Below, in pieces: positions 8,933-57,853 of a stretch of DNA of 64,000 bases. This stretch comes from Syntrophaceae bacterium. GTDB taxonomy: Bacteria; Desulfobacterota; BSN033; UBA1163. The notes under the pieces are model-generated. The model did no database searches. It was not told where the DNA came from and saw only the letters and a list, made by a program, of their open reading frames with translations. The position numbers were made by a program, and so were the translations under genes. Within the stretch, counting starts at the first letter, position 1. Every line of letters begins with the position of its first letter. The DNA lies in NCBI GenBank assembly GCA_013388635.1, contig JACAEX010000033.1:2356-66355 (forward strand). Reading direction: 5' to 3'.

Positions 8933-8986
8933 CAGGATTCGGACACTGAGACTTCTGATCAACCCTGCCAGAGCAGAGGACGAAGA

Positions 8987-10303: not shown

Positions 10304-10307
10304 AAGG

Positions 10308-10865
10308 ATGGGGGCTTCCTTGGAAAGACTGATTCTATTCCATGAGGAAAATTTGAAAAAATGGGGGGTTTATATCATCAGTACTCCACTGATCGTCATG
10401 ACGATCGTCGAGGTCCTCAATGCCTTCGGCCGGAAGCTTTTTATCCCCTTTCCCTGTTGTCTGGAAGCCGTGGAGAGCCTCCTCGTCATCTCGGTCTATT
10501 TCGGGGTCTCCATCGTTGCGATGGAGGGAGGGCATGTCAATGTGACGATCATGACGCGCAAACTTCCCAATCGGTTGCAACATGCCTTGGATGCCTTCGC
10601 CAACCTCTTGGGGATGTCGGCCTTTGGTTTTCTATCAGTCGGAGCATGGGCTGAGGCATTCAGGGCTTTGCGGATCCTGGAGATGCGGATCGGGGTGTAT
10701 CGATTTCCTCTTTGGCCGTTTAAACTGCTCTTCGCTGTGGGGATCAGTTTTCTGACCATCCAACTCGCGATCAATGCGATTAAATTTGTTCACTTCGCTT
10801 TAGGCCATTCCACCTATGCGGGGGCCAAGGCAAAGCAGGAGGCAGAGGTCTTAATGGAAATGTAG
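10308..10865 (+). CDS. dctQ: TRAP transporter small permease
   Basis: 4 TM segments, GGHVNVTIM motif, located between dctM and dctP. Confidence 0.85.
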   Translation: MGASLERLILFHEENLKKWGVYIISTPLIVMTIVEVLNAFGRKLFIPFPCCLEAVESLLVISVYFGVSIVAMEGGHVNVTIMTRKLPNRLQHALDAFANLLGMSAFGFLSVGAWAEAFRALRILEMRIGVYRFPLWPFKLLFAVGISFLTIQLAINAIKFVHFALGHSTYAGAKAKQEAEVLMEM

Positions 10866-11109
10866 GGATTTGAAGAAAATGGGGGAGGGCTGTGAGTTGA
10901 CATCAGAGGCTCGGAGGCATAATTAGGATTATGAAAGCAAGGGTTGCGGGGCACAAAGAGGTCTTCGAAGTCTGATTCGGGCAATGGCTTCAGGGGTTGT
11001 TTTGATCAGGGAATCTTTGGAAGAGGAGGTGATGGAAAGGGTAAAGATCTGCGGGACGGGAATGCGAGCTCGTCAATGAGCAAAAATAAAGATGATGAGG
11101 AGGACGAAG

Positions 11110-40238: not shown

Positions 40239-40478
40239 ATGAAGAGTTGCATGGATAATGCGATTAAAGAGATATGCGATAAAGAAGGGGTTTCGGAGCG
40301 GGCATTGAGGCTGGGAGTGCGGACCAGAAAGTTTTCGAGGGTCCGAGTGAAGGTTGCGTATCATTTGAATCATGAGTACGGGATTTCGAGGGCTGAGGTC
40401 GCGCGGCAACTTGGGGTATGTACTTCAGCGATTGCTAAGGCCGTTCAGAACATGGAAGGAGCCGAAAATAAGTGTTGA
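40239..40478 (+). pseudogene. Probable C-terminal remnant of a REP-associated tyrosine transposase (HTH tail only)
   Basis: VAYHLNHEYGISRAEVARQLGVCTSAIAKAV resembles the DnaA-C/TrpR-like tail of RAYT-type transposases. No HUH catalytic domain is seen upstream. Confidence 0.5.
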
Positions 40479-40530
40479 TTTTCAACTATGTCCCTTTTCG
40501 TATTTTAATCTTTTAGACGGAGGTGGAATC

Positions 40531-40932
40531 ATGGACAAAGAGGTTGTTCTTGAGAACGAATATATAACCGTATGGTATTATCCTCAAAAGAAAATCGTCC
40601 ACCATGAATTTCATAAATTTACGTCTGGGAAGACATTTCAGGACGCATTAAGTGCAGGAGCTGCAATATTAGAGAAAAATAGGGCTCAAAAATGGCTATC
40701 AGATGACAGGAAAAATACTGTTATCGGTAAAGATGACATGCAATGGACTAAGACCGTTTGGAGGCCTCGAGTCATTAAGGCAGGGTGGAAATATTGGGCT
40801 CTTGTTCTCCCGGAAAAAGTTATAGGACAGATGGTTATGAAACGAATAATTAAAGAATATGCCGATACTGGCGTTACGGTAGAGATATTCAGCGACCCTG
40901 ATAAAGCCATGAAGTGGCTTGAGGCCCAATAG
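40531..40932 (+). CDS. Hypothetical protein, STAS/SpoIIAA-like fold
   Basis: RBS GGAGGT. KWLSDDR...WRPRVIKAGWKYWALVLP...VEIFSDPDKAMKWL. AT-rich codon usage. Confidence 0.7.
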   Translation: MDKEVVLENEYITVWYYPQKKIVHHEFHKFTSGKTFQDALSAGAAILEKNRAQKWLSDDRKNTVIGKDDMQWTKTVWRPRVIKAGWKYWALVLPEKVIGQMVMKRIIKEYADTGVTVEIFSDPDKAMKWLEAQ

Positions 40933-40973: not shown

Positions 40974-42041
40974 TCAACCTGTCGTTGAGGCCCGAACAGG
41001 ATTCAGGATGGTCGTTGAAAAATCTTTCGATTCGACCCCAGGGGATTCGATCCTTTCCTTTTCATAAAAACTTTCTACCCTTTCGATGATCTGGTCTTCT
41101 TCCAGGGGAACCCTTTCCAGTGACCTCTCCAGACCGTCGAGCCGCTCCTTTGGAAAAAAGGTGAAATCCCCTGAGATGGTGATCTGCTCGATCCTTCTCT
41201 CCGAAATCTCTTCGATGGTCCGGATAAGTCCGCCCCTGGCCTTGTGGAGGCCGTAGTAGACCTCCAGGCCCTCTTTTATCTTCACCCCTTTGGGGACCTT
41301 GGATGTCTTTTTCAGCAGAAACCCTTCTGATGTCATCCAGGATTCTAACTCTTTCATCTTTTCGACAATTTCCTGGTTCAATGAGACAGGCTCGAGCCTT
41401 CCCAGCATCTTTTCAAAACTCTCTCGGAGTACCCTGACGATCTCCTCACGGCGAGGGATCGTTCCCAGCTCTTTCTTCATCGTGGTCAGATTTTCTTCCA
41501 TGGTTTTATGAACCTTATCCCTGAATTTTTCGTCAGGGACCTTCAAGATCCGACTCATCGTTCTGTAGTCAAAATCGAGGAGGATTCCTCCGACGAAGAC
41601 CATACAGTCCCCGATATTCCCTCCGCCCTCCCCTGCGATCTTTCTTCCCTCTCTGGTAATGATGTCGTTGACCGCCCGGTATTCGGCCTGGATTCCGAAG
41701 GTCCTGTAAGTCTCAACAGGCGCCTGTGAGAACCAGGGGTAGATCTCATGGATCGCCCTCGGGAATTTTTGATTCTCCTTCCTCCAGATCAGTTGATAGA
41801 AGATCTGGTTCTCATCGAGATAAGTGGCTCCTCCTCCGACCTCTCTTCGCATGAACGGGATCCCCATCCCTTTGCAGTACTGGAGGTCCACCTCCTGCTC
41901 GGCATCCTGGAAATATCCGATGCTCGCAAGAGGGCGGCTTGGTGATACGATCACCAGGGCCTCGATTCCCATTCGCGCAAGGGCATGAAAGATGAGCATC
42001 GATTGCTGCCCTGGAAGCTTTCCGAGATCAAATAGATACAT
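40974..42041 (-). CDS. lplA: Lipoate-protein ligase (LplA catalytic domain plus C-terminal LplB-like domain)
   Basis: SIGYFQD, RREVGGGATYLD, YRAVNDI...GRKIAG, KARGGLIR, ITISGDF. Confidence 0.88.
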   Translation of the reverse strand: MYLFDLGKLPGQQSMLIFHALARMGIEALVIVSPSRPLASIGYFQDAEQEVDLQYCKGMGIPFMRREVGGGATYLDENQIFYQLIWRKENQKFPRAIHEIYPWFSQAPVETYRTFGIQAEYRAVNDIITREGRKIAGEGGGNIGDCMVFVGGILLDFDYRTMSRILKVPDEKFRDKVHKTMEENLTTMKKELGTIPRREEIVRVLRESFEKMLGRLEPVSLNQEIVEKMKELESWMTSEGFLLKKTSKVPKGVKIKEGLEVYYGLHKARGGLIRTIEEISERRIEQITISGDFTFFPKERLDGLERSLERVPLEEDQIIERVESFYEKERIESPGVESKDFSTTILNPVRASTTG

Positions 42042-42098
42042 GGTCTCCTCCTTTTTGATTGATTTAAGTCTCCGAACTCAGAACTCGAAACCTCGATC

Positions 42099-43286
42099 TC
42101 AGGACTTCATATTTTTGAGCACAAATTCCGTGATGTCCATCACGGTGATCGGGATCTTTTTCTTTCGGGCCGTGCTCATCATGGTGCGCACACACTGCTG
42201 ACAGGAGGTGATCACCGTATCGGCACCGGTGGCCTGGATCTGCTTGAGCTTCTCCTGGGCCAGGGCTGCCGAAAGCTCTGGATCGACCATCTCGAGGTTA
42301 CCTCCTCCACCGCAGCACTTGCACGCCTCTCGGCTGTTTTCCATCTCAACGAGGACCACCCCAGGGATCTGCCGGAGCACCTCTCGGGGCGGTTCATAAA
42401 CACCGCTCCCCCTGCCCAGATCGCAGGGATCGTGATACGTGACCTTCGCCTTTTTCTCCTTAAAGATGATCTTCCCTTCCTCGATCAACTTCTTGAGGAA
42501 CTGAGTGGAATGAAAGACCTCGATATCTGTTTGGTAATCCTCCAGCCAGGTATGGTAGCAAGACGGGCACGCGAAGACCGCCCGCACGACGCCCTTCGCT
42601 TTCATCTTTTCGAGATTGTGCTGGATCAGAACCTCGGCCTCCTTTTTCATTCCTGCTCCGATCAGAGGAAACCCACAGCACCACTCCTCTCCGCCGAGGA
42701 GGGTGAAATCAACCCCGGTCTTCCGAAAGATCTCGACGAGGGCCTTGGGAATCCTGTGGACCATGGGAAAGAAGGAGGCCACGCACCCGACGAAAAAGGC
42801 CACTTCAGCCCTCTCTTTGTCATAAAGGTGATCCGGGACCTCGTCCAGGGACTTGACCCACTCCACCCGCTCCATATTTTCATTTCCGAGGATGTTATGG
42901 ACCTCGGAGAGGTTGGACTTCAGTTGATCCATCGCCTTCGGGAAGTAGCCCATCTCCACCAGGGTCTCCCTCAAGGCAAGCCAGAGATTTTTAGCATCGA
43001 TGGAGACCGGACAGCTCACGCCACATTCACCGCAGAGGGTACAGCGGTAGACCATCTCTGAGAATCTTTTCAACTTCTCCTCGTCCAGTTTTTTAGGGCC
43101 GAAGACCCTTGCCCAAAGGCCGTACTGGCTCCGGATGAAAGCCTTAAAGGCCTGAATCTTTCCCCGGGGATCGATCTCCTCCTGGCCCTTCTGGGCATAG
43201 ACCGGGCAGGATTTCAGGCATTCGCCACACCGGGTGCAGGCATCGATCTCGATCAGTTGTCTGGGAGAGAGGGCTGAGAGCTTCAT
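42099..43286 (-). CDS. Fe-S oxidoreductase with 2x4Fe-4S and CCG domains (HdrD/GlcF-like)
   Basis: CTRCGECLKSCP, CTLCGECGVSCP, FVGC, WCCGFP, YHDPCDLGR, CCGGGG, TSCQQC. Confidence 0.9.
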   Translation of the reverse strand: MKLSALSPRQLIEIDACTRCGECLKSCPVYAQKGQEEIDPRGKIQAFKAFIRSQYGLWARVFGPKKLDEEKLKRFSEMVYRCTLCGECGVSCPVSIDAKNLWLALRETLVEMGYFPKAMDQLKSNLSEVHNILGNENMERVEWVKSLDEVPDHLYDKERAEVAFFVGCVASFFPMVHRIPKALVEIFRKTGVDFTLLGGEEWCCGFPLIGAGMKKEAEVLIQHNLEKMKAKGVVRAVFACPSCYHTWLEDYQTDIEVFHSTQFLKKLIEEGKIIFKEKKAKVTYHDPCDLGRGSGVYEPPREVLRQIPGVVLVEMENSREACKCCGGGGNLEMVDPELSAALAQEKLKQIQATGADTVITSCQQCVRTMMSTARKKKIPITVMDITEFVLKNMKS

Positions 43287-43292
43287 GGCGAA

Positions 43293-44405
43293 TTAGGCTG
43301 CCTCCTTCTTATTGGCAAGCCCTTCCTCATAAAGCCGGGCGAGGAACTCGGTGATATTGTAGATCTCGATGTTCTGCCTTCGCCTCGCATTTCTAAAATT
43401 ATGAAGGCATGAAGGGCACTCGGTGAGCAGAACCTCGGCTCCTGTCTCCTCGATGATCTGGCTCAAGCGGTTTCTTGCAATCTTGACCGAGTCCTTTGGA
43501 AATGCACCTCTGAAGCCTCCTCCCGCGCCGCAACACATGGCGTTCTCCCTGGTTCGTCTCGGCTCGACAAAATTGGGAGCGATCTTGCGGATGATTGCCC
43601 TCGGTTCATCATAGATGCCTGCATGACGGCCGAGATCGCAGGGGTCGTGATAGGTGACCCTTTTTTCCGTCTTCACCTCGAAGTCAAAGTCTTTGAGAAA
43701 CTGGGTGATGTGCTTAACCTCCAGGCCCAGATCCCGGTAGGCAGGATGTTCCTTGAAGACCCGGTAACAGTAAGGACAGGTGGTGATCAGGGTCTTCGCT
43801 CCGGTCTTCTGGAATTCTTGAATATTATGTTGGGCCAATCCTTTCTTGACTTGGTAGCCCACGTCTTCGAGCACCCCACTGCAGCAGACCTCTTCGATCA
43901 TGGTGAAGTCGACCTTGAGGAGATCGAGAAGGCGGATGGTCTCGGCCACGCTCTCCTGCTCCCGATAGGTCCCCACACAGCCTAAGAAGAGGACGTAGGG
44001 AGCCTTTCCCTTCCTATGGCCCCAGTCCTGCCTCTCTTGCTCTCCATAGATGTTGCCATACTTCTCCACGATCTCGCCCATGGCCCTGAAGAGGTTGTCG
44101 TATCCGATCCCGACCAGCTCTTTTCGCATGGCCTTGATCACCTCCTGAGGGTCTGCACCGGAGGGACAGTTGGTCGTACAATTCATGCAGGTGGTGCAGC
44201 GGAGAAGGGCCTGAGCCACGGCCTCGGTCACGGGAAGCTTCCCGTCCATCACCTCTTTGAGGAGGATCATCTTTCCTCGAGCATTGGTAATGGGCCTTTT
44301 GGTCAGGTCGAAGATCGGGCAGACCGCCCTGCAGAAGCCGCAGCGGGAACATTGGGTGATCGCCTTACGCCGGTTGTCGTCGAGTTGCAAATGGTTGATC
44401 ATCAT
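43293..44405 (-). CDS. Fe-S/CCG-domain subunit (GlcF/LdhB-like)
   Basis: CSRCGFCRAVCP, CTTCMNCTTNCP, FLGC, CCSG, YHDPCDLGR, CCGAGG, ECPSC. Confidence 0.9.
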   Translation of the reverse strand: MMINHLQLDDNRRKAITQCSRCGFCRAVCPIFDLTKRPITNARGKMILLKEVMDGKLPVTEAVAQALLRCTTCMNCTTNCPSGADPQEVIKAMRKELVGIGYDNLFRAMGEIVEKYGNIYGEQERQDWGHRKGKAPYVLFLGCVGTYREQESVAETIRLLDLLKVDFTMIEEVCCSGVLEDVGYQVKKGLAQHNIQEFQKTGAKTLITTCPYCYRVFKEHPAYRDLGLEVKHITQFLKDFDFEVKTEKRVTYHDPCDLGRHAGIYDEPRAIIRKIAPNFVEPRRTRENAMCCGAGGGFRGAFPKDSVKIARNRLSQIIEETGAEVLLTECPSCLHNFRNARRRQNIEIYNITEFLARLYEEGLANKKEAA

Positions 44406-44420
44406 TTCACCTGTTAAGTT

Positions 44421-44487
44421 AAAATTCCAAATCCAAAACACCAAATCCAAAATTGTTTCGGGTTTCGTGCTTCGAATTTCGGTTTTT
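44421..44487. repeat. Intergenic low-complexity palindromic repeat, copy 1
   Basis: aaattccaaatccaaaacaccaaatcc...; the core TTTCGTGCTTCGAATTT at 44463-44479 is shared with 49435-49451 (reverse) and 54687-54703. Confidence 0.65.
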
Positions 44488-45855
44488 TCATTTATCCAGT
44501 GCTCTTTTCCCAGGGTTCATAATATTGTTAGGGTCCAAAACCCTTTTGATCTTTCTCATCAGGGCCATCTCCACAGGATCGTGCTCCAGGCTCATGTAGT
44601 TGGCCTTGGAGAGGCCGATGCCATGCTCTCCTGAGAGGGTTCCCTTGAGTGAGATGGCCAAGTCGAAGATCTCCTCCTCGACCTTCTCCATCAACTCCAC
44701 CTGGTTCGGGTCGTACTCGTCGTAAAGGATCTGGGGATGGAGATTGCCATCGCCAGCATGGCCATAGGTCGCGATCAGCATGCCATGTTTTCGGGAGATC
44801 TCCTGGATCCCCAAGAGGAGGTCTGATATTCTTGAAACCGGAACGGTGACATCGTCCAGCACGAAGCTGTGGCTGGCCCGTGCCAGGGTGGCATAAGCAG
44901 ACTTGCGGGCCTTCCAGAGATCGAGCCGGTCCTTCTCATCCTTGGCCGTCTTAATAGAGATCGGATGGTTCTGGTTAAAGATGTTTAAGACGACCTCCAT
45001 TTGGGCCTCCACCTCCTGCCAGGTATAGCCGTCTGTCTCGGTCAGGATCATCGCCTCTGCATCAGGCAGGTCGATGTCGGTGTTCTCCTTAATCGATTTG
45101 AGAGTGACCTTGTCGAGGATCTCCATCACACTCGGAAGCACGCCACTCATCATGGTCTGAGAGATCGCCTTTCCCGCATCCTCCAGCCTGGCAAAGGTTG
45201 CCACTGCGGTCATCGCATGTCGGGGGATGGGATTGATCTTCAGGGTGACCTCCGTAATCACCCCCAGGGTTCCTTCAGAACCGACGAACAGTTTCGAAAG
45301 GTCGTAGCCCGAGACACACTTCATCGTGTAGGCGCCGGTTTGCATGATCTCACCGGTTGGCAGGACGACCTGCAGACCGAGGACATAGTCTCGCGTGGTG
45401 CCGTATTTGGCCCCCTTGATCCCGCCCGCGTTTGTGGCTACGTTGCCGCCGATCGTAGAGACGGAGCTGCTTGCAGGGTCAGGGGGAAATATGAAGCCGG
45501 ACTTTGCCAATGCCCGATTGAGATCGTCACAGACCACGCCTGCCTGGACCTTGGCATAACGGTTCTCAATACTGATTTCGAGGATGCGGTTCATCTTTGA
45601 GAGGTCGATGATGATGCCGCCCTGAATGGGGACCGCCCCGCCGCTCAGGCTGGTCCCTGCCCCCCTTGGGATCAGGGGGGTTTTATGCTCATTGGCAAAC
45701 TTGACGATTTCAGATACCTGCTCCGTCGATTCAGGCCAGACGGCGGCATCGGGTCTATGGACGTTGATCGAGGCATCATAACTGTAGGGCACCAGTTCCT
45801 CCAGCTGGTCGGTGAAATTCTCTTTCCCAACGATCTCAATCAATCTCTTAAGCAT
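44488..45855 (-). CDS. FAD-linked 2-hydroxy-acid dehydrogenase (GlcD/D-lactate dehydrogenase-like)
   Basis: PRGAGTSLSGG, FPPDPAS, NAGGIKGAKYGTTRDYV, GSEGTLG, GHAGDGNLHP, SGEHGIG, MNPGK. Confidence 0.92.
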   Translation of the reverse strand: MLKRLIEIVGKENFTDQLEELVPYSYDASINVHRPDAAVWPESTEQVSEIVKFANEHKTPLIPRGAGTSLSGGAVPIQGGIIIDLSKMNRILEISIENRYAKVQAGVVCDDLNRALAKSGFIFPPDPASSSVSTIGGNVATNAGGIKGAKYGTTRDYVLGLQVVLPTGEIMQTGAYTMKCVSGYDLSKLFVGSEGTLGVITEVTLKINPIPRHAMTAVATFARLEDAGKAISQTMMSGVLPSVMEILDKVTLKSIKENTDIDLPDAEAMILTETDGYTWQEVEAQMEVVLNIFNQNHPISIKTAKDEKDRLDLWKARKSAYATLARASHSFVLDDVTVPVSRISDLLLGIQEISRKHGMLIATYGHAGDGNLHPQILYDEYDPNQVELMEKVEEEIFDLAISLKGTLSGEHGIGLSKANYMSLEHDPVEMALMRKIKRVLDPNNIMNPGKRALDK

Positions 45856-46044
45856 ACGAAATTCCCTTCTCGCTTATCGTCGGTCGAATTATAACCTCTT
45901 CGTCTCCATTACTCCAACCTGATCTGAACGATTCGGCGCTCCTGAAGGAGAGCAGAAATGGCTCAAAGTCTTTCCGCCAAAGGCGGATCCGACTCTGTTG
46001 GATTAGAATGCGATTTTTCAATAAGCGAGCTCAATACCATTCGA

Positions 46045-46746
46045 TCATCGTTTCTGATTCCTGAAGGCCATCACCTCGGATTCGACATAATTTAGATGTT
46101 CAAGCGTTTTTCTCCTCGCCTTATTGGGCGAGCGGTTCTTGATCGCATCGAATATCTGGTAATGCTGACGAATCAGTTTTTTCACCTTTTCTCGATCCGT
46201 GAAGACCCGTGCTACCGATTCCCGGAGAAGCCCGTAAATGGTGGACATGAGATGGGTCTGGATGGTGTTATGGGTTGCCTGAGCGATGGCCAGGTGAAAA
46301 TCGGCATCTTCCTTTTCCCAGGATCGACCTTCGTCAAAGGCCTTGGTCATCTCCACGATGATCTCTTCCAGCCGTTTGATATCCTCGTCCATCGCTCTTT
46401 GAGCTGCCTGAAAGGAAGCCCATGACTCCATCGCCTTTCTCACCTCTATCAGATCGAAGATCTTCTGTGTGTCCGTTTTAATGATCCGGGAGAGGGGGTC
46501 TTCAATCCTTTCCGAGATGACCGATTTGACAAAGGTCCTCCTGGCCTGTTTCACTTCGAGAAACCCCATCGCCACCAATGAGTTCAGGGCCTCTCGGAGG
46601 GTGGGACGGCTTACACCAAATTCTTTAACGAGCTGGCGTTCGGGAGGAAGGCGATCGCCGGGCTTTAGCTTGCCCTCGCTGATGAGGCCTTTGATCTGGT
46701 TTACGATTTCGTCGGAGGCCCTTTTGGGCCTGATCGTTTGGAACAT
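46045..46746 (-). CDS. FadR-subfamily GntR regulator (LutR/PdhR/GlcC-like)
   Basis: IRPKRASDEIVNQI...LKPGDRLPPERQLVKEFGVSRPTLREAL, FCD domain DADFHLAIAQATHN. Confidence 0.92.
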   Translation of the reverse strand: MFQTIRPKRASDEIVNQIKGLISEGKLKPGDRLPPERQLVKEFGVSRPTLREALNSLVAMGFLEVKQARRTFVKSVISERIEDPLSRIIKTDTQKIFDLIEVRKAMESWASFQAAQRAMDEDIKRLEEIIVEMTKAFDEGRSWEKEDADFHLAIAQATHNTIQTHLMSTIYGLLRESVARVFTDREKVKKLIRQHYQIFDAIKNRSPNKARRKTLEHLNYVESEVMAFRNQKR

Positions 46747-46759
46747 GTCGATTCAGGTT

Positions 46760-46770
46760 TGGTCAAACCA
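46760..46770. promoter_or_regulatory. Putative FadR operator (autoregulatory)
   Basis: TGGTCAAACCA 14 nt upstream of the regulator start codon. Confidence 0.65.
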
Positions 46771-46860
46771 TTTTAATTTGAATTCAGTCATGTTGTCAAT
46801 CGAAAAATAGAATCCTTTAAAGATCGAAAGGTTAGGCGGGATATTGGATCGTTATGGTAG

Positions 46861-51682: not shown

Positions 51683-51789
51683 GACAATTTTAGACAGGGA
51701 TTTCGGATTGGAGAGGCTTTGAAGATAAACCCTCCGAATTCTTAACTCATGACTCCGAACTGTTTTGCACAAAATTCCAGGAGGTTTTG

Positions 51790-53181
51790 ATGGAACGAGA
51801 GAAGATGGTTGAGGAACTGGCGGGGATCGTAGGGAAGGAGAATGTCCTGTCCTCTGAGACGGACTTGCTCCTCTACGGCTACGATGCCTCCCTCTTCAGG
51901 GGAAGGCCTGACTGCATCGTCCTTCCTGGTTCGACCGAAGAGGTTTCGAAGATCGTCAAGTTCGCCCGGGCGAATGGCATCCATATTGTCGCCAGGGGAT
52001 CTGGAACGAACCTGAGCGGTGGGACCATTCCCACCCAGGGAGGGATCGTCCTTCACTTTTCTCGGATGAACAGGGTTCTGGAGATCGACATCGAGAATCA
52101 GAGGGCCGTGGTGGAGCCGGGGATCTTCACCCTTGTGCTGAAGAACCAATTGGCCCGTTACGGATATATTTACCAACCCGATCCGGCCAGCGAGAAGGTC
52201 TCCACGCTTGGAGGAAATTTCGGAGAAAATTCGGGAGGGCCCCACTGCCTCAAATACGGGGTGACGACCAACCACATCTTAGGGGCAGAGGTTGTGCTCT
52301 ACGACGGTGAGGTGATTCAGGTCGGCGGCAAAGCCCTTGACCATCCGGGTTACGATCTAACCGGCGTGCTAGTGGGATCGGAGGGAACACTGGGAATTGC
52401 GACGAAGTTGATCCTCCGGATCATGCCAAAACCTGAAGCGGTCAAGACGATGCTCGCCATCTACAACTCCCTGGAGGATGCAGGCAGGACGGTCTCCGCG
52501 ATCATTGCCGATGGGATCATCCCTGCGACCTTAGAGATGATTGACCGATTGACGATTAAGGCGGTTGAGGAGTCGATCCACGCCGGATTTCCTCTCGATG
52601 CAGAGGCTGTTCTTCTAATCGAACTGGATGGATTAAAGGATGGGATGGAGAGGCTGGCTGAAAGGATCATGGAGATATGCAGGAAGAACAATGTCCGTGA
52701 GGTGAAGGTGGCAAAGACCGAGGCAGAGAGGGCGCAGCTCTGGGCCGGACGAAGGGGTGCCTTCGGCGCGGTGGCCCGGCTCAGGCCGAACTACTTTGTC
52801 TGCGACGGAACCGTTCCGAGAACAAGGCTGCCCGAGGTTCTGACCAGGGTGATGGAGATAGGCAGGAGATACGGCCTCGCCATTGCGAATGTCTTCCATG
52901 CGGGAGATGGAAACCTTCATCCTCTTATCCTTTTCGATGAGCGAAATGAGGAGGAGCTGAGAAAGGTCCATTTAGCCGGGTCTGAGATCTTGAAATTATG
53001 TGCTGATGCAGGTGGGACGATCAGCGGGGAGCATGGCATTGGCACGGAGAAGATGAAGGAGATGCTCTTCGTCTTCAACTCTCAGGACATTGCGGCCATG
53101 AAAAAGGTAAAGAAGGCCTTCGACCCTGAGGATGTTTATAATCCGGGGAAGGTCCTGCCGGAACAGACGCTCTCTGCTTAG
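51790..53181 (+). CDS. glcD: Glycolate dehydrogenase FAD subunit
   Basis: RGSGTNLSGG, PDPASEKVSTLGG, NSGGPHCLKYGVT, GSEGTLG, FHAGDGNLHP, SGEHGIG, NPGK. Confidence 0.88.
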   Translation: MEREKMVEELAGIVGKENVLSSETDLLLYGYDASLFRGRPDCIVLPGSTEEVSKIVKFARANGIHIVARGSGTNLSGGTIPTQGGIVLHFSRMNRVLEIDIENQRAVVEPGIFTLVLKNQLARYGYIYQPDPASEKVSTLGGNFGENSGGPHCLKYGVTTNHILGAEVVLYDGEVIQVGGKALDHPGYDLTGVLVGSEGTLGIATKLILRIMPKPEAVKTMLAIYNSLEDAGRTVSAIIADGIIPATLEMIDRLTIKAVEESIHAGFPLDAEAVLLIELDGLKDGMERLAERIMEICRKNNVREVKVAKTEAERAQLWAGRRGAFGAVARLRPNYFVCDGTVPRTRLPEVLTRVMEIGRRYGLAIANVFHAGDGNLHPLILFDERNEEELRKVHLAGSEILKLCADAGGTISGEHGIGTEKMKEMLFVFNSQDIAAMKKVKKAFDPEDVYNPGKVLPEQTLSA

Positions 53182-53203
53182 CGTGGGAGAAGGAGAAAGG
53201 AGT

Positions 53204-54565
53204 ATGCCCAGCACCATGAAAACGCTTTCTCGGCTGCAAGAGATCGTTGGGGAAGCCAATCTCATTAAGGATCGCGATAGGCTAAAGGCTTATAAACTGG
53301 ATGGAAAGACCCCCAAGGTGGTTGTCTCTCCGGCGACGGTCGACGAGACCTCCAGGGTCGTGGCTTATGCCTATGAAAAAGGGTTAGCCCTCGTCCCGAG
53401 AGGGAATGGGACAAAGATGAAGATGGGTGGCATTCCCAAAAGGGTGGACATCCTTCTTTCAACCACCCGGCTCAATCGGATAACTGATAAGGACTGCGAC
53501 AATCTCACCCTCTGCGTAGAAAGCGGCATCACCCTCGATGAGGTTCAGAAGACCCTGGCCAGAGAGGGGAGAGGCTACTTTCTTCCTCTCGACCCACCTT
53601 TCTCAGATAAGGCGACGCTCGGCGGGATTGTGGCGACAAATGCGAGCGGGCCCAAGAGATTGCTCTACGGCACAGCGAGAGACTTAATTACAGGTATGAA
53701 GACGGTCTTCCCCAATGGGGATGTGGTGGTTTCAGGTGGGAAGACGGTCAAGAATGTCTCCGGCTATGATATGTGTAAACTCCTGATCGGTTCTTTTGGA
53801 ACCCTGGGCATCATCTGTGAGATGACTTTTAGACTCCTTCCCCTTCCCGAAAAGGAGGCGACTCTCCTCCTCTCCTTCCAAAAGCTGGAGCAGGCCGATG
53901 GATTCGTTCGGGAGATCATCTCGTCCCAGCTTATTCCTGCCTCCATTGAAACCCTCAACCGACCGGCTCTCGATTATTTGAAACGCCAGATCCCTCTATC
54001 GACGGATGGGAATTATCTCGTTGCCATTGGATTGGAGGGTGTTCGAGAGGGTGTGGAGAGACAGATGGCTGAGATTGGGGAACGGGGGAAGAGATACGGA
54101 TGTGTCAACGCGGAGGCGATGGATGGGGAGGAAGGAGAGGCCTTTTGGAAGGCCCTTCGAGACTTCTCGATCTGGAGCGATCCGGATCTCATCTCTCTCA
54201 AGTCGAATTTTTTCCTGTCAAAACACGGGGAGATGATCGCAAGTTATGAAAGGATGACCGCAGAATCGGGTGTTCGATCTGCCTTGATCTGCCATTCCGG
54301 AAATGGGATCCTTTATTCCCATCTCCTCACGGCAAAGGTTTCGCGATCAAAAGCCGAGGTCTTGGCCGGGCTGATTCAAAAGATGACCCTGGAAGCGGTG
54401 AAGAACGGAGGAAATCTGATTGTGGAGTCGGCCCCTTCTTCTCTTAAAAAGAGAATCGATGTGTGGGGAGAGGCCCGGAGCGATCTCCGGATCATGCAGC
54501 GTATTAAAGAGGAGATGGATCCGAGGAGAATCCTCAACCCGGGAAGGTTTGTAGGAGGAATCTAA
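53204..54565 (+). CDS. glcE: Glycolate dehydrogenase second FAD-binding subunit
   Basis: ATLGGIVATNASGP.RLLYG..RD, GGKTVKNVSGYDMCKL.IGSFGTLG, ILNPGRF. Lacks GEHG. Confidence 0.88.
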   Translation: MPSTMKTLSRLQEIVGEANLIKDRDRLKAYKLDGKTPKVVVSPATVDETSRVVAYAYEKGLALVPRGNGTKMKMGGIPKRVDILLSTTRLNRITDKDCDNLTLCVESGITLDEVQKTLAREGRGYFLPLDPPFSDKATLGGIVATNASGPKRLLYGTARDLITGMKTVFPNGDVVVSGGKTVKNVSGYDMCKLLIGSFGTLGIICEMTFRLLPLPEKEATLLLSFQKLEQADGFVREIISSQLIPASIETLNRPALDYLKRQIPLSTDGNYLVAIGLEGVREGVERQMAEIGERGKRYGCVNAEAMDGEEGEAFWKALRDFSIWSDPDLISLKSNFFLSKHGEMIASYERMTAESGVRSALICHSGNGILYSHLLTAKVSRSKAEVLAGLIQKMTLEAVKNGGNLIVESAPSSLKKRIDVWGEARSDLRIMQRIKEEMDPRRILNPGRFVGGI

Positions 54566-54569
54566 CGTA

Positions 54570-54710
54570 CCAAAAATGCGAAATCCGAATGTCGAAATCC
54601 GAAACAGATTCAAAATGTTAATTTTCAAGATTTGGATCTTTTTTGTTTAGAAAATTAGGATTTTGAACATTCGATATTGTTTCGAATTTCGTGCTTCGAA
54701 TTTAGGATTT
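54570..54710. repeat. Intergenic palindromic repeat, copy 3
   Basis: cgaaatccgaatgtcgaaatccgaaac ... gaacattcgatattgtttcgaatttcgtgcttcgaatttaggattt. The two ends are imperfect inverted repeats. Confidence 0.65.
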
Positions 54711-54731
54711 TACGCGAGGAAAGAGTGAATT

Positions 54732-55880
54732 ATGAAACAGGAAGAGCTGAAGACATTGTTATACGATGAGATCGCCAAATGCAATCGGTGTGGCTTCTGT
54801 TTGGCAGTCTGTCCTGTTTATACCGTTAAAGGAAGAGAGTGGGCGACGCCAAGGGGTAAGAATGCGCTGATCCGGGCGATCATCGAGAATAAGATCGATT
54901 GGACCCCGGAGATCGAGGAGACCCTCTTCCGCTGTACCGGATGCAGGCTCTGTACCCAGACCTGTTTTCCTGCTGTGGAGACGAACCAGGGTGTTCTCGC
55001 AGGAAGGGAGTGCCTGGTCGACAGAAGGCAGTACCCAAAGGTTGTCGATCGGGTGGTGGAGGCCCTGGAGAAGAATTTCAATATCTCCGGTGAGTCAAAT
55101 CAAAGCCGTTCGATGTGGGTGGAGGGATTGGGGGAGGTTCCCGATCATAAGTTTCAAAAGGAGAGGGCTGAGGTGATCTACTTCGTCGGATGTGTGGCAG
55201 CCTTCTACCCCATGGCCCATAAAATTCCTCAGACCTTTGTCCGGATTCTGGACAGGGCCGGAGTGGACTTCACCATCCTTGGAGGAGAGGAGTGGTGCTG
55301 CGGGTTTCCTCTGATTCAGGCAGGGATGAAGGAGAAGATGGGAAAACTGGTGGAACACAATGAGCAGAAGGTGAAGGAGGTGGGTGCGAAGGCCGTTGTC
55401 TTTGCCTGTCCCTCCTGTTATCACACGTGGAAGGAGAGGTATCATACCGATGCTGAGCTGCTCCACTCCACCCAGTTCATGGAGAGACTGATCGAGGAGA
55501 AGAAGATTGCTTTCAATAACGGGATTGAGAGGAAGGTGACCTATCACGATCCCTGCGATCTCGGCAGAAACAGTGGCGTTTACGACCCGCCGAGAAATAT
55601 ATTGAGAAAAATCCCCAATCTTCATCTGGTCGAACTGGAAGGAAATCGCCAGCTATCGGTTTGTTGTGGCGGGGGAGGGGATCTTGAGATGATCGATCCG
55701 GAGCTCTCCGCAGCCATTGCTCAAAGGAAGGTCGAAGAGATTCAGAGGACCGGAGCGGACGAGGTGGTCACTTCCTGCCAGCAATGCATCCGGACGATCT
55801 CCGGTTACGCCAGAAAACACAAGATCAAAATCAGGGTCAAGGATATTACCGAAGTGGTCTGGGAGGCGATGGTAAAGTAG
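54732..55880 (+). CDS. Fe-S/CCG-domain subunit (GlcF role, HdrD-like sequence)
   Basis: CNRCGFCLAVCP, CTGCRLCTQTC, FVGC, WCCGFP, YHDPCDLGR, CCGGGG, TSCQQC. Confidence 0.9.
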   Translation: MKQEELKTLLYDEIAKCNRCGFCLAVCPVYTVKGREWATPRGKNALIRAIIENKIDWTPEIEETLFRCTGCRLCTQTCFPAVETNQGVLAGRECLVDRRQYPKVVDRVVEALEKNFNISGESNQSRSMWVEGLGEVPDHKFQKERAEVIYFVGCVAAFYPMAHKIPQTFVRILDRAGVDFTILGGEEWCCGFPLIQAGMKEKMGKLVEHNEQKVKEVGAKAVVFACPSCYHTWKERYHTDAELLHSTQFMERLIEEKKIAFNNGIERKVTYHDPCDLGRNSGVYDPPRNILRKIPNLHLVELEGNRQLSVCCGGGGDLEMIDPELSAAIAQRKVEEIQRTGADEVVTSCQQCIRTISGYARKHKIKIRVKDITEVVWEAMVK

Positions 55881-55887
55881 ATTTAGC

Positions 55888-55941
55888 TTGACAAAGGCTT
55901 TTAAATTATATTATTTCTTTTTGCCATTAATGGTAAGACCA
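55888..55941 (+). promoter_or_regulatory. Promoter and FadR-type operator of the TRAP operon
   Basis: TTGACA at 55888-55893, an AT-rich -10 region, and AATGGTAAGACCAATT (core 55931-55941). Confidence 0.65.
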
Positions 55942-56061
55942 ATTTCGGAAGGAAGATTTTTCAAAGAGGTTGAATTTAACCAAATCTCATGCGAAAGGAG
56001 GTGAAGGTTTTTAGAAGAGGCAGGTTGTTTTCCTTTAACCCTTTTGTGAAAGGAGAAAGGT

Positions 56062-57213
56062 ATGGGAAAGAAAGTTCAAGACAAGAAAAGTGAAGAGAAG
56101 GTTTCTCGTCGTAGGTTTTTGAAGGCCGCGGCAGCCACGGCCGGCGTGACGGCAGCCACCATCGGTGTTCCCGCGTTTCTCAAACATGCTTCGGCCGCAC
56201 CTATCAAATGGAAGATCCAGACAGCCTGGGATGCAGGCACCCTTGGGTTTGTGAAATTTCAGGAATTCTGCAAGAAGATGGGAGAGATTTCGGAGGGTAA
56301 ACTCGTATTTGAAGGTTTTCCTGCCGGTGCGATTGTGGGCACGTTTGAGATGTTTGACGCAGTGAAGGCGGGTGTTTTTGACGCTTACCATTCCTTTGAC
56401 GTTTACTGGGTAGGTAAGGTGCCTGCTTGTACCTTCCTGTCTTCTTACCCATTTGGAATGGATCGTCCGGACCAGTGGGAAACCTGGTATGAATATCTGG
56501 GAGGAAAAGAAATTGCCCGGGAAGCTTATGGCGCACATAATATGATGTACGTGGGACCCATCCAGCATGATGATAACCTGATCCATTCTAAGATACCTAT
56601 TCGATCGTTTGAAGAGTTCAAGGGAAAAAAGATCCGCTATCCGGGAGGTATGATCGCTGATATCTATCGGGCGGCTGGTGTCTCTACCGTGCTCCTTCCT
56701 GGAGGGGAAGTCTATCCTGCCTTGGAGAAGGGTGTCATCGACGCTTCGGACTATGTTGGTGCAGCGGTCAATTACAACCTTGGTTATGGAGAGATTGCAA
56801 AGTACATTATCATGGGGCCTCCCTCCACGCCATGCCTGCATCAACCTGTGGACTTGATGAGCTTGGAGGTTAACATGGGCAGATGGAAGGCTTTGCCCAA
56901 ATATCTTCAGGATATGGTAGAAGCAGTGGTCAAATGGCACTCCTGGGATCATTACGCAGCCATCCAGAAAGCGGATATCCAGGCCTTCGAAGACTTCCAG
57001 AAAAAGCAAGGGGTTACGATTATCCGGCTTAAAGAGTCCGATATTGAGAAGTTCAGGAAGTTCGCCCCGGAATTGTGGGTGACGTGGGCGAAGAAGCATC
57101 CTCTTGCGATGAAGGCCTTCAAGTCTCAATGGGAATACATGAAGTCTATCAAGATCGGCTACTATAAGGATTCAGACTTAGTTGATCTGAAAGGGAAGAG
57201 GTTAACCCTTTAG
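56062..57213 (+). CDS. dctP: Tat-exported TRAP substrate-binding protein, lactate/2-hydroxy-acid type
   Basis: SRRRFLK twin-Arg signal; WKIQTAWDAGT, FLSSY..DRPDQWETW, GPIQHD, LPGGEVYPALE, HQPVDLM. Resembles the Thermus lactate-binding TRAP protein as recalled. Confidence 0.88.
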   Translation: MGKKVQDKKSEEKVSRRRFLKAAAATAGVTAATIGVPAFLKHASAAPIKWKIQTAWDAGTLGFVKFQEFCKKMGEISEGKLVFEGFPAGAIVGTFEMFDAVKAGVFDAYHSFDVYWVGKVPACTFLSSYPFGMDRPDQWETWYEYLGGKEIAREAYGAHNMMYVGPIQHDDNLIHSKIPIRSFEEFKGKKIRYPGGMIADIYRAAGVSTVLLPGGEVYPALEKGVIDASDYVGAAVNYNLGYGEIAKYIIMGPPSTPCLHQPVDLMSLEVNMGRWKALPKYLQDMVEAVVKWHSWDHYAAIQKADIQAFEDFQKKQGVTIIRLKESDIEKFRKFAPELWVTWAKKHPLAMKAFKSQWEYMKSIKIGYYKDSDLVDLKGKRLTL

Positions 57214-57220
57214 AGGCGAC

Positions 57221-57263
57221 TGGGGAGGGGGAGCGGAATATTTTCGATTCTCCTCCCCATTTT
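57221..57263 (+). terminator. Stem-loop between dctP and dctQ (attenuating or mRNA-stabilising)
   Basis: TGGGGAGGGGGAG ... TTCTCCTCCCCA followed by TTTT. Confidence 0.5.
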
Positions 57264-57304
57264 ACGTGGATGGAACGGGCTGAAGATCCTCTGAGGAGAA
57301 GGTT

Positions 57305-57853
57305 ATGGATGGTTTGAGGAAATTTATGATGATTGTGAACAAAACCAACATCTTTGTCGGAAAGATGATGGTTGGGGTGACCCTGCTGGCTGTCTTTGTG
57401 ATCACCTTTGAGGTGGTGATGCGTTATGTGTTTAACCGGCCTACAAACTGGGGCCATGAGAGCATGATCCTCCTTTTTGCGATTTTCTACTGTGCCGCGG
57501 CCGGCTATGCCCACTACTACCGCGCCCATGTGCGAGTGGATGTTTTTTACTCGACTCGCCCTCCAAGAACAAGAGCCTACCTCGATTTGATCACCTCTAT
57601 CTTTTTCTTTCTCTTTGCGATCGTCTTCACCTATACGAGCTGGAATTTTTACTGGAGTTCCCAGACCATGCTAGGTGGAGGTAAGATATTCGGGATTACC
57701 GTTCCCGGAGAACTCTCCTTTACCGATTGGCAACCTCCTTACTATCCGGTCAAGTTTATGATGCCTCTGGGAGGGTTTTTGTTGCTGCTTCAGGGAGTTG
57801 TCTGGTTGATCCGCGATATCCACATGGCTGCGACCGGGAGGGAGATGAAATGA
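57305..57853 (+). CDS. dctQ: TRAP small permease
   Basis: EVVMRYVFNRPTNW, AHVRVDVFY, YPVKFMMP. Confidence 0.9.
   Translation: MDGLRKFMMIVNKTNIFVGKMMVGVTLLAVFVITFEVVMRYVFNRPTNWGHESMILLFAIFYCAAAGYAHYYRAHVRVDVFYSTRPPRTRAYLDLITSIFFFLFAIVFTYTSWNFYWSSQTMLGGGKIFGITVPGELSFTDWQPPYYPVKFMMPLGGFLLLLQGVVWLIRDIHMAATGREMK

Follow-up and report, generated by a model that had tools for sequence, protein, structure and literature searches.

A lipoate-protein ligase clade linked to GlcD-type flavoproteins and CCG iron-sulfur proteins in a Syntrophaceae bacterium and across phyla

Introduction

Methanosarcina HdrDE and DsrMK of sulfate reducers each pair an HdrD-type protein with a NarI/HdrE-like cytochrome b and thereby couple the quinone pool to a disulfide carrier of the cytoplasm. 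The GlcDEF glycolate oxidase and the two-subunit GlcD/GlcF-like D-lactate dehydrogenases found in sulfate reducers share a gene order in which a GlcF-like CCG subunit comes after a GlcD flavoprotein; neither GlcF nor GlpC is known to act on a disulfide. The HdrDE model is treated in preprint 10.64898/2026.08.18.745454, which also describes the mycobacterial EtfD/EMO and the Syntrophus EMO, in both of which the non-cubane clusters serve solely to carry flavoprotein electrons on to quinone. This ETF:menaquinone oxidoreductase is known from M. smegmatis (9ojn) and Syntrophus aciditrophicus (PMC13083937; preprint 10.64898/2026.08.18.745454). In the sHdr-LbpA-sLpl(AB) system of the sulfur oxidisers Hyphomicrobium denitrificans and Thioalkalivibrio (Cao et al. 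2018 PMC6067878; Tanabe et al. 2023 PMC10332631; Kumpel et al. 2026 preprint 10.64898/2026.10.01.755906), as in the system described here, CCG proteins are tied genetically to a GcvH-like lipoate-binding protein and a dedicated, non-housekeeping ligase. No published description of a lipoate-coupled hydroxyacid/CCG system was found in the literature.

Results and Discussion

Gene content of the operon

The window, 64,000 nucleotides of a contig (C93) from a Syntrophaceae bacterium, carries a tightly packed minus-strand unit encoding a GntR/FCD regulator, a GlcD-like flavoprotein, two HdrD-type CCG proteins and an LplA-type ligase, with intergenic gaps of 189, 37, 6 and 57 bp. A flavin dehydrogenase/double-CCG/ligase unit had been recognised in a preliminary description, and all five genes were found where it placed them. 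A sigma-70-like promoter (TTGACA-18-TAAAAT, 46770..46799, minus strand), a pattern match only that agrees with the consensus at 11 of 12 positions, is located 5′ of the regulator gene, and sequence inspection revealed no convincing terminator within the unit. The host is a hot-spring anaerobe belonging to the Thermodesulfobacteriota.

The first gene (46045..46746, minus strand) predicts a PdhR/LldR/GlcC-like regulator (Pfam GntR 2.7e-21, FCD 1e-27), and its position is conserved in relatives including L012, L020 and L024. The gene had been called FadR; a GntR/FCD regulator is indeed present, but its NCBIfam score is 62 bits for FadR and 175 bits for both PdhR and LldR, every one under its cut-off. 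The next gene (44488..45855, minus strand) encodes a GlcD-type FAD 2-hydroxyacid dehydrogenase subunit (FAD_binding_4 1.1e-48, FAD-oxidase_C 1.3e-69) that scores 496 bits against glcD TIGR00387 (cut-off 568), and its closest solved relatives are glycolate oxidase (9qgz, 1e-91) and LctD (7qh2, 3e-85). CCG1 (43293..44450, minus strand) is a GlcF/HdrD-like iron-sulfur protein (Pfam CCG 9.5e-30, Fer4_8) in which both CCG motifs are complete and two ferredoxin motifs are present; its N-terminus scores 98.6 bits against GlcF. Translation probably begins at the ATG at 44405, which would give a product of 370 aa like its orthologues and extend the 37 bp gap to 82 bp.

GlcD and CCG1 would be expected to form a 2-hydroxyacid dehydrogenase of the glycolate or D-lactate type. 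GlcD followed by a CCG subunit, with a GlcC/LldR/PdhR-type GntR/FCD regulator, is shared with GlcDEF and the GlcD/GlcF-like D-lactate dehydrogenases. Unlike GlcDEF, the minus-strand unit has no GlcE, includes a second CCG protein and a ligase, and scores below the equivalog cut-offs throughout, whereas a canonical three-subunit GlcD-GlcE-GlcF set, accompanied by a TRAP transporter and absent from the preliminary description, is found on the plus strand of the window (51787-59163).

The ligase and its clade

The last gene (40974..42041, minus strand) predicts an LplA-type lipoate-protein ligase (LplA-B_cat 4e-33; weak Lip_prot_lig_C 3e-4) that aligns with the solved ligases 6jom and 2ars and carries a C-terminal accessory domain. 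The catalytic lysine K134, together with R65, R66 and the GGG of the RRxxGGG motif, is invariant across 32 relatives, and the enzyme looks active from its sequence. Family placement, a check proposed in the preliminary description, assigned it to a distinct Hdr/GlcD-linked clade, with scores under the cut-offs of both the LplA model (TIGR00545, 115 bits, cut-off 280) and the sLpl(AB) model (LplAB NF053751, 86 bits, cut-off 550). In the tree, a long branch separates it from the other LplA-like gene of the host genome, which is adjoined on contig C17 by LipS1/LipS2/LipT, and its own sequence is 52-81% identical across phyla. The window ligase is in a different clade from that of sHdr-LbpA-sLpl(AB) systems and has no LipS1/LipS2/LipT neighbours.

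Conserved linkage across phyla

Ligases of this clade were found at 82 loci in Thermodesulfobacteriota, WOR-3, TA06, Stahlbacteria, Zixibacteria, Aerophobetes, Thermoplasmata, Promethearchaeota and others. Neighbours within 8 kb were scored at the 49 loci, from more than 10 phyla, that have at least 4 kb on each side. GlcD was present at 35/49, a CCG protein likewise at 35/49 and a GcvH-like gene at 19/49, and 39 of the 49 loci have at least one of GlcD, CCG/HdrB or a GcvH-like gene. Around the paralogous LplA::DUF116-LipT-LipS2-LipS1 ligase of the same family, used as the control, none of these was found within 8 kb (0/20 loci).

The linkage is retained through at least six gene orders. Close relatives have GlcD-CCG1-GcvH-CCG2-NarI-ligase, and the other arrangements are GlcD-ligase-HdrC-HdrB-HdrA-MvhG-MvhA, GlcD-CCG-ligase-HdrCBA, GcvH-ligase-HdrCBA, GcvH-ligase-GlcD::CCG fusion and GcvH-ligase-LutA-LutB-Ldh_2. 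About 10 ligase loci lie in unrelated contexts, and most of these are paralogues with 76-77% identity. The preliminary description had made its proposal depend on linkage in other genomes. Because the clade adjoins GlcD and/or CCG/Hdr genes at most loci in many phyla, and a GcvH-like carrier gene in the operon of close relatives, an unlinked ligase is not what was found.

Within the family, however, the operon occurs both with and without the ligase. Among 55 genomes surveyed, 31 have the ligase and 36 a CCG1 orthologue; 22 have both, 14 only CCG1, 9 only the ligase and 10 neither. At the genome level this co-occurrence does not exceed chance. GlcD-CCG1 and GlcD-CCG1-CCG2 operons also occur in genomes without any ligase.

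Lipoyl carriers in the host genome

The preliminary description noted no lipoyl-domain protein in the window. This was correct, as a search of the whole of contig C93 found no GcvH or lipoyl/E2 domain. A GcvH-like carrier of the KW type, named after its invariant lysine-tryptophan pair, and a NarI-like cytochrome b are encoded on another contig, C33, where the carrier gene is 285 bp from a contig end. The motif [EQ][ST][GAS]KW is present in 32/32 KW-type carriers; GcvH proteins encoded next to gcvP have E[SA]VK[AT] and form their own clade, apart from the ligase-linked carriers. The C33 GcvH groups with carriers whose genes directly adjoin the ligase (98% SH-aLRT). GcvP is missing from one genome of 2.07 Mb, whose sole GcvH gene adjoins the ligase, together with a GlcD::CCG fusion.

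Service of the ligase to glycine cleavage, an alternative raised in the preliminary description, is disfavoured: the host gcv operon on contig C89 has its own LipB, Lpd and LipA for housekeeping lipoylation, and the linked carriers are separate from the gcvP-adjacent GcvH. The host also encodes three E2 proteins and a canonical GcvH as possible targets of a ligase. A C33-type carrier is present in 53/55 family genomes, including all 24 that lack a window-type ligase, and therefore some other enzyme must be capable of lipoylating it, most obviously that of the LplA::DUF116-LipT-LipS set.

CCG2 and a putative split membrane module

CCG2 (42099..43286, minus strand; Pfam CCG 3.7e-33) is an HdrD/DsrK-like iron-sulfur protein that shares the architecture of CCG1 (Fer4 and two CCG domains), having two ferredoxin motifs with 8 cysteines and two complete CCG motifs with 10. 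Scores against DsrK, TmcB and GlpC are each about 110 bits (DsrK ∼113), and the best PDB match is EtfD/EMO (9ojn, 1.3e-35), followed by HdrB. CCG2 is 61% identical to the GcvH-adjacent CCG protein of relative G009, and the host genome has no closer copy.

Relatives have the order GcvH-CCG2-NarI-ACS-SecDF, and host contig C33 has GcvH-NarI-ACS-SecD, with a NarI-like protein that shares 75% identity with the NarI encoded in the operons of relatives, while the host CCG2 gene is only in the window. By sequence, the window CCG2 is the sole candidate in the host genome for an HdrD-like partner of the C33 GcvH-NarI pair. In relative G007 this pair follows ACAD-EtfB-EtfA. Complex prediction for CCG2 and the C33 GcvH gave a score of 0.57 (0.00 for the best of 3 controls), and in calibration passing scores of ≤0.60 were obtained for only 7/80 solved complexes and for both passing mismatches. 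At least 80% of contacts agreed over three runs, with a partner pLDDT of at least 86; the pass mark was reached by 58/80 solved complexes and 2/110 mismatched pairs. The predicted complex lends weak support to a carrier-CCG2 pairing.

The preliminary description had placed the extra CCG protein between the flavoprotein and lipoate. The gene order of relatives instead makes an HdrD-like partner of the NarI-like membrane cytochrome the best reading of CCG2, which would put it on the carrier's quinone side. As in HdrDE/DsrMK, a NarI/HdrE-like cytochrome b would have an HdrD-type partner that combines two ferredoxin clusters with two CCG motifs, but the proposed carrier is a lipoylated protein rather than CoM-S-S-CoB or DsrC, and in the host the two halves are at separate loci. 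EMO/EtfD likewise combines NarI-like and HdrD-like modules that deliver flavoprotein electrons to menaquinone, and no solved protein is closer to CCG2 in sequence. In EMO, however, the modules are fused into a single polypeptide, the distal cluster is modified (one cysteine lost), the substrate site is blocked and there is no lipoyl carrier, whereas CCG1 and CCG2 each retain all ten CCG cysteines and are accompanied by a carrier and a ligase.

Proposed function and alternatives

The reading that accounts best for these data, and which we hold to be somewhat more probable than its negation, is that the ligase lipoylates the KW-type carrier and that the CCG proteins use this carrier as their dithiol/disulfide partner. 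Besides GlcD and CCG1, the operon would supply a dedicated lipoate ligase and, as CCG2, the soluble HdrD-like half of a membrane module resembling HdrDE/DsrMK; the remainder of that module, the KW carrier and NarI-like cytochrome b, would come from C33 in the host and from within the operon in close relatives. The ligase would place lipoate or octanoate on the carrier, and the non-cubane iron-sulfur sites in the CCG domains may then reduce and oxidise the carrier dithiolane, by analogy with CoM-S-S-CoB in methanogens and with the role suggested for LbpA of sHdr systems. We infer that the carrier links the flavoprotein to menaquinone via CCG2 and NarI, and in other phyla it may link instead to HdrABC-Mvh hydrogenase complexes. 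Given that the ligase adjoins these genes and a dedicated lipoyl carrier in many other anaerobes, protein-bound lipoate may be the disulfide that CCG/HdrD-like enzymes use.

The potential of the lipoyl/dihydrolipoyl couple is approximately -290 mV, that of D-lactate/pyruvate -190 mV and that of glycolate/glyoxylate -90 mV. Hydroxyacid-driven reduction of lipoyl groups would be uphill because the lipoyl couple is lower than the lactate and glycolate couples. The lipoate-coupled hydroxy-acid oxidation suggested in the preliminary description is supported in part: the genetic association with ligase and carrier stands, but the placement of CCG2 changes, and the energetics and the optional ligase count against it.

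A less likely but serious alternative is that CCG1 and CCG2 serve only for electron transfer, like GlcF, GlpC or EMO/EtfD, and pass electrons from the GlcD flavin to menaquinone, while the co-expressed ligase salvages lipoate for any lipoyl protein (GcvH, E2s) and lipoate stays outside the dehydrogenase reaction. The relationship of CCG2 to EtfD/EMO, whose non-cubane clusters only transfer electrons, is consistent with this, as are GlcD-CCG1(-CCG2) operons without the optional ligase, unlinked ligase paralogues, and the three E2s and canonical GcvH available in the host. It leaves unexplained why 39/49 loci are linked compared with 0/20 for the LplA-LipT-LipS paralogue, and does not account for a distinct KW-type GcvH interleaved among CCG genes or for the GcvP-less genome that keeps a GcvH by the ligase and GlcD::CCG fusion. 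Housekeeping LipB-LipA is moreover already present with gcv, and the ten-cysteine set, partly lost in EMO, is full in both CCG proteins.

It is improbable that the lipoylated GcvH-like protein carries sulfur, as a persulfide or trisulfide on its dithiol, rather than electrons, with the CCG proteins processing a sulfur substrate and the hydroxyacid dehydrogenase as electron donor. The analogy with sHdr-LbpA (PMC6067878, PMC10332631), a host in the Thermodesulfobacteriota and the DsrK score of CCG2 point that way. However, DsrE, TusA and rhodanese, the constant companions of sHdr, were not seen in the window operon or the listed operons of relatives, and the partners are hydroxyacid dehydrogenases, ETF and hydrogenases. 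Compared with sHdr-LbpA-sLpl(AB), the carrier is a KW-type GcvH, its partners are a GlcD-type dehydrogenase and NarI-like cytochrome (HdrABC-Mvh hydrogenase in other phyla), no sulfurtransferases were seen, and the hosts are strict anaerobes and not sulfur oxidisers.

Least likely is a role for the ligase-like protein other than, or beyond, maturation, as a stable subunit or as a modifier of a lysine on one of the proteins of the complex itself: its high conservation and the many WOR-3/Thermoplasmata loci with the ligase between GlcD/CCG and HdrC and no adjacent carrier gene would fit, but the catalytic lysine and nucleotide-binding motif are invariant, Pfam shows no lipoyl-domain-like segment in GlcD, CCG1 or CCG2, and a KW-type carrier is encoded in 5/5 checked genomes with such carrier-less loci. 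The three WOR-3 genomes among them encode the carrier elsewhere than at the ligase locus; in both that were inspected, it adjoins a GlcD::CCG fusion.

The minus-strand unit and its setting

Five closely packed genes on the minus strand (window positions 40974-46746) predict a GntR/FCD regulator, a GlcD-type FAD dehydrogenase, two iron-sulfur proteins designated CCG1 (43293-44450; GlcF/HdrD-like) and CCG2 (42099-43286; HdrD/DsrK-like), and an LplA-type ligase (40974-42041). CCG1 and CCG2 each consist of two ferredoxin-type and two CCG domains, and both carry two CxnCCxnCxxC motifs with all 10 cysteines as well as two CxxCxxCxxxC motifs. The start of CCG1 is most likely at position 44405, 15 codons within the listed open reading frame, as in 370-aa orthologues. 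A promoter-like site (11/12 match) is located upstream of the regulator gene, and no convincing terminator was found inside the unit. GlcD scores 496 bits against an equivalog cut-off of 568, CCG1 and CCG2 score 98.6 and 66.8 bits against the GlcF equivalog cut-off of 333, and GlcE is absent from the unit. No GcvH, E2 or other lipoyl domain is encoded on the window's contig. As the five genes are as described and the contig carries no such domain, the preliminary description of the gene content, and of the absence of a lipoyl protein from the window, is confirmed as written. The runs listed as containing the stretch are four DNA runs, all from one hot-spring metagenome study, with no RNA run among them.

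The divergent plus strand, with which the unit has a control region in common, includes genes for a succinyl-/citryl-CoA-synthetase-like ligase, a CitE-type lyase and a formyltransferase-like protein. Downstream of these is a second hydroxyacid dehydrogenase set, of canonical composition, with genes for GlcD (51787-53181), a GlcE-like protein (53132-54565) and a GlcF-like CCG protein (54732-55880) followed by the TRAP transporter genes DctP, DctQ and DctM (51787-59163 for the whole set including the transporter). Given this canonical set, the minus-strand unit represents a further, unusual hydroxyacid dehydrogenase within a glycolate/lactate-type regulon. A 186-aa open reading frame convergent with the ligase gene (40372-40932, plus strand) has no Pfam or NCBIfam match.

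A third lipoylation enzyme

The window ligase includes the LplA/LipB catalytic domain PF21948 (115.5 bits, gathering cut-off 27). K134, which aligns with the KIMG-motif lysine of Thermoplasma acidophilum LplA, and R65, R66 and G69-G71 of the RRxxGGGxxY nucleotide motif are invariant in 32 clade members. In LplA-type ligases, the catalytic lysine holds lipoyl-AMP. The accessory domain Lip_prot_lig_C is weakly matched (21 bits, cut-off 24), the LplB model NF053749 gives 50 bits (cut-off 65), and residues 29-326, nearly the whole length, align to the solved ligase 6jom. Judged from the catalytic lysine, the RRxxGGG motif, the C-terminal accessory domain and the near-full-length alignment to solved ligases, the protein looks to be an active lipoate ligase.

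Its placement was based on model scores and on paralogues in the same genome, used in place of named LplA/LipM/sLpl(AB) reference sequences. A standard LplA is ruled out by TIGR00545 (115 bits, equivalog cut-off 280), and the LplAB type of the sLpl pathway by NCBIfam NF053751 (85.9 bits, cut-off 550). No LipS1, LipS2 or LipT gene was found near the window ligase. Two other lipoylation systems are encoded in the same genome, LipB-Lpd-LipA inside a gcvH-gcvPA-gcvPB operon on contig C89 and an LplA::DUF116-LipT-LipS2-LipS1 cluster on contig C17, making the window ligase a third, separate enzyme, and a very long branch parts it from the C17 paralogue in the tree. The earlier alternative that the window ligase serves glycine cleavage is set aside as the principal reading, since the gcv operon comes with a LipB-Lpd-LipA set of its own.

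In the C17 cluster (L016:2503-7158), a gene for a 518-aa fusion of an LplA-like ligase with DUF116 precedes those for a geranylgeranyl-reductase-like flavoprotein and two radical SAM proteins. One of the latter two reaches 241 bits with the LipS2 model (cut-off 270). The cluster is kept in 20/20 family loci examined, two of which are cut by locus ends. The DUF116 fusion is not, to our knowledge, a feature of the described sLpl(AB).

Linkage of the ligase gene across phyla

Prokaryotes were searched at one genome per species with an alignment of 8 close ligase sequences, and 80 ligase loci, 52-81% identical, were returned. The bacterial loci are from Thermodesulfobacteriota, WOR-3, TA06, Stahlbacteria, Zixibacteria, Aerophobetes, Hydrothermota, Acidobacteriota and Bacillota, and the archaeal loci from Thermoplasmata, other Euryarchaeota and Promethearchaeota. 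Together with two loci fetched earlier, 82 loci were scored by comparing all reading frames with profiles of the relevant proteins, and linkage was counted, for genes up to 8 kb away, in the 49 loci that extend at least 4 kb to either side of the ligase. A GlcD gene is present in 35 of these 49 loci, a CCG protein gene also in 35, and a GcvH-like gene in 19. At least one of the three is present in 39/49; the preliminary description had made its interpretation depend on the ligase being linked to these genes in other genomes, and such linkage is thus found.

The linkage is kept through very different gene orders. Syntrophaceae-type loci are arranged as GntR-GlcD-CCG1-GcvH-CCG2-NarI-ligase, those of WOR-3 and Stahlbacteria as GlcD-ligase-HdrC-HdrB-HdrA-MvhG-MvhA, and those of Thermoplasmata as GlcD-CCG-ligase-HdrC-HdrB-HdrA. 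One Promethearchaeota genome has ligase-HdrC-HdrB-HdrA-GcvH, Syntrophobacterales have GcvH-ligase followed by a GlcD::CCG fusion, and one bacterium (L114:8577-13083) has GcvH-ligase-LutA(CCG)-LutB-Ldh_2. This last arrangement ties the carrier and ligase also to a dehydrogenase of another family and to proteins of LutAB-type lactate utilisation. In 20 control loci of the same family carrying the C17-type ligase, LipT/LipS genes (whole or part) are present in 20/20 and GlcD, CCG, HdrC or GcvH within 8 kb in 0/20, indicating that the GlcD/CCG/GcvH association is specific to the clade of the window ligase.

About ten ligase loci, mostly 76-77% identical paralogues, are in unrelated contexts. Such paralogues are found in several Thermodesulfobacteriota, away from any GlcD/CCG gene (for example L098 [ENA contig_11286], ligase at 10001-11086), with MOSC, metallo-beta-lactamase, DUF364, methyltransferase, radical SAM protein and MoCF_biosynth genes as neighbours.

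A proposed module split over two loci

In relatives, the operon also contains the carrier and the membrane protein; the window lacks both, and they are encoded on contig C33 of the same genome. The C33 carrier is a 152-aa GcvH-like protein of the type with lysine-tryptophan at the lipoyl site (KW-type; C33:286-744), and is not encoded with gcvP/gcvT but adjoins a gene for a NarI-like protein (C33:986-1825) that is 75% identical to the in-operon NarI of relatives. Genes for an acyl-CoA synthetase (ACS) and then SecD follow, and C33 breaks exactly upstream of the carrier. In 13 related loci, a NarI-like gene is located 3′ of CCG2; the window has none.

The GcvH-NarI-ACS-SecDF synteny is also found in relatives, with differing partners. 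One relative, G007 (L126:3658-10581), carries genes for a sigma-54 activator, an acyl-CoA dehydrogenase (ACAD), EtfB, EtfA, a KW-type GcvH and a NarI-like protein, with no HdrD-like gene between GcvH and NarI, and the locus resembles that of the ETF:menaquinone oxidoreductase (EMO, or EtfD) with a lipoyl carrier inserted. Two others, G009 and G045, have an HdrD-like CCG gene between GcvH and NarI, and divergent from these three genes are HdrC-HdrB-HdrA-MvhD in G009 and a GlcD::CCG fusion in G045. Window CCG2 is the best and only close homologue of the GcvH-adjacent CCG gene in its own genome (61% identity). The simplest reading of these arrangements is that GcvH-CCG2-NarI may constitute one module, a lipoyl-carrier version of HdrDE/DsrMK. 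In the present lineage, the HdrD-like gene would then have relocated to the GlcD operon along with the ligase, and the whole module would have moved in the six-gene operons (GlcD-CCG1-GcvH-CCG2-NarI-ligase).

The KW-type carrier

The C33 GcvH matches GCV_H (PF01597, 151 bits) and keeps the lipoyl lysine, in the sequence ESGKW. All ligase-linked GcvH-like proteins have [EQ][ST][GAS]KW around this lysine, with lysine and tryptophan invariant, and gcvP-adjacent GcvH proteins have E[SA]VK[AT]. In the tree, a separate clade unites the gcvP-adjacent copies, and the C33 GcvH groups with the ligase-adjacent carriers (98% SH-aLRT). The use of surface charge as a discriminator of carrier type is an idea from a 2026 Dahl-lab preprint. 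Net charge gave no general separation, being 0 to -23 for KW-type carriers and -11 to -17 for gcvP-adjacent proteins; the Syntrophaceae carriers, including that of C33, are less acidic (-1 to -4).

The ligase-linked carrier type was found in 5/5 nearly complete ligase-bearing genomes checked. In three WOR-3 genomes the carrier is far from the ligase, which in G001 and G004 belongs to a ligase-Hdr-Mvh locus. The carrier directly adjoins a GlcD-family frame in G001 (L115:8203-11303), and one frame without identity (8771-10024) separates the two in G004 (L116:8268-12625). The GlcD-family frames are 832-833 codons long, and the one scanned, from G001, is a GlcD::Fer4::CCG fusion. One 2.07-Mb Syntrophobacterales genome has no GcvP, and its sole GcvH is the copy beside the ligase.

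Distribution within the order

The order was surveyed in 55 genomes, of which 31 have the ligase, 36 a CCG1 orthologue and 53 the C33-type carrier. Co-occurrence of ligase and CCG1 at the genome level is not above chance (22 genomes have both, 14 only CCG1, 9 only the ligase and 10 neither), and the ligase is physically inside the GlcD operon in at least 14 genomes. GlcD-CCG1 and GlcD-CCG1-CCG2 operons exist in genomes without a window-type ligase, and the carrier is kept in 24/24 genomes that lack the ligase. The patchy ligase, the ligase-free operons and the carriers in ligase-free genomes together indicate that the ligase serves the system as an accessory and is not required throughout. Presumably, the LplA-LipT-LipS pathway is also able to lipoylate the C33-type carrier. 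A second carrier paralogue, of the six-gene-operon type, was found in 15 genomes, all with the ligase, and is on one contig with the ligase in at least 11.

Electron wire or lipoyl-dependent enzyme

The preliminary description proposed that electrons from the hydroxy acid pass via the extra CCG protein to a lipoyl disulfide carrier. This stands in part, with the linkage of the ligase and the presence of the carrier in relatives' operons in its favour, and the optional ligase, the energetics and the precedent of EMO against it. The best solved relative of CCG2 is EtfD/EMO, which has a blocked substrate site and lacks one cysteine, and whose non-cubane clusters act as electron wires, so that the HdrD/HdrB-type CCG fold can be a pure electron wire [preprint 10.64898/2026.08.18.745454]. 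Unlike EMO, CCG1 and CCG2 have lost no cysteine. We know of no cysteine loss in GlcF either. The predicted complex of CCG2 with the C33 carrier scored 0.57, and the best of 3 controls 0.00; the runs agreed in at least 80% of contacts, and the partner pLDDT was at least 86. The pass mark was reached by 58/80 solved complexes and 2/110 mismatched pairs in calibration, and passing scores of up to 0.60 by only 7/80 solved complexes and both of the passing mismatches; the model thus weakly supports docking of the carrier by CCG2.

Textbook potentials make the reduction of lipoyl groups by D-lactate or glycolate an uphill step, requiring that the carrier potential is shifted, that the flow is pulled or coupled, or that it is reversed. 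On balance, we lean slightly towards a lipoyl-carrier mechanism for the CCG/GlcD system. More tentatively, CCG-domain enzymes (HdrB, HdrD, GlcF-like and LutA-like) of non-methanogenic anaerobes might have the lipoate of the KW-type carrier as their physiological dithiol/disulfide substrate. The bound lipoate would be a protein analogue of CoM-S-S-CoB, shuttling electrons among hydroxyacid dehydrogenases, ETF, HdrABC-Mvh hydrogenases and NarI-type membrane cytochromes. The window would then show the hydroxyacid-to-quinone version, whose parts here occupy two loci.

Relationship to known systems

Few redox modules are as common in anaerobes as Hdr-like and other CCG-domain proteins, whose thiol/disulfide substrates are CoM-S-S-CoB in methanogens, DsrC in sulfate reducers and LbpA in sulfur oxidisers. 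Outside these three groups, we know of no such substrate. A special ligase and a special carrier linked to CCG, Hdr and GlcD genes over bacterial and archaeal phyla provide a concrete candidate. If correct, this would account for the connection of glycolate- or lactate-type substrates to the membrane in the present organism, and the wiring would be modular, the carrier-NarI pair adjoining ETF, HdrABC or GlcD genes in relatives.

The membrane half of the window/C33 module resembles HdrDE, DsrMK and EMO, and the flavoprotein half of the window unit resembles GlcD/GlcF-type dehydrogenases. Among described systems, sHdr-LbpA-sLpl(AB) of sulfur oxidisers [PMC6067878; PMC10332631; preprint 10.64898/2026.10.01.755906] comes closest. 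It follows the same logic of Hdr-like CCG proteins with a dedicated lipoyl protein and a dedicated ligase but differs in ligase clade, carrier type, partner enzymes and physiology. No description of this ligase or carrier with GlcD/Hdr genes was found in the full-text literature outside subscription journals.

Another locus in the same genome (C46:38500-43250; L014:8521-13233) encodes three GcvH-domain proteins that carry long N-terminal extensions and are apparently anchored in the membrane. Their genes flank those for an NrfD-type membrane protein and a Fer4_11 (PsrB/DsrO-like) protein, and genes for a histidine kinase and a sigma-54 regulator come after them. Two of the three GcvH-domain proteins are without the lipoyl lysine, and all branch far from other GcvH.
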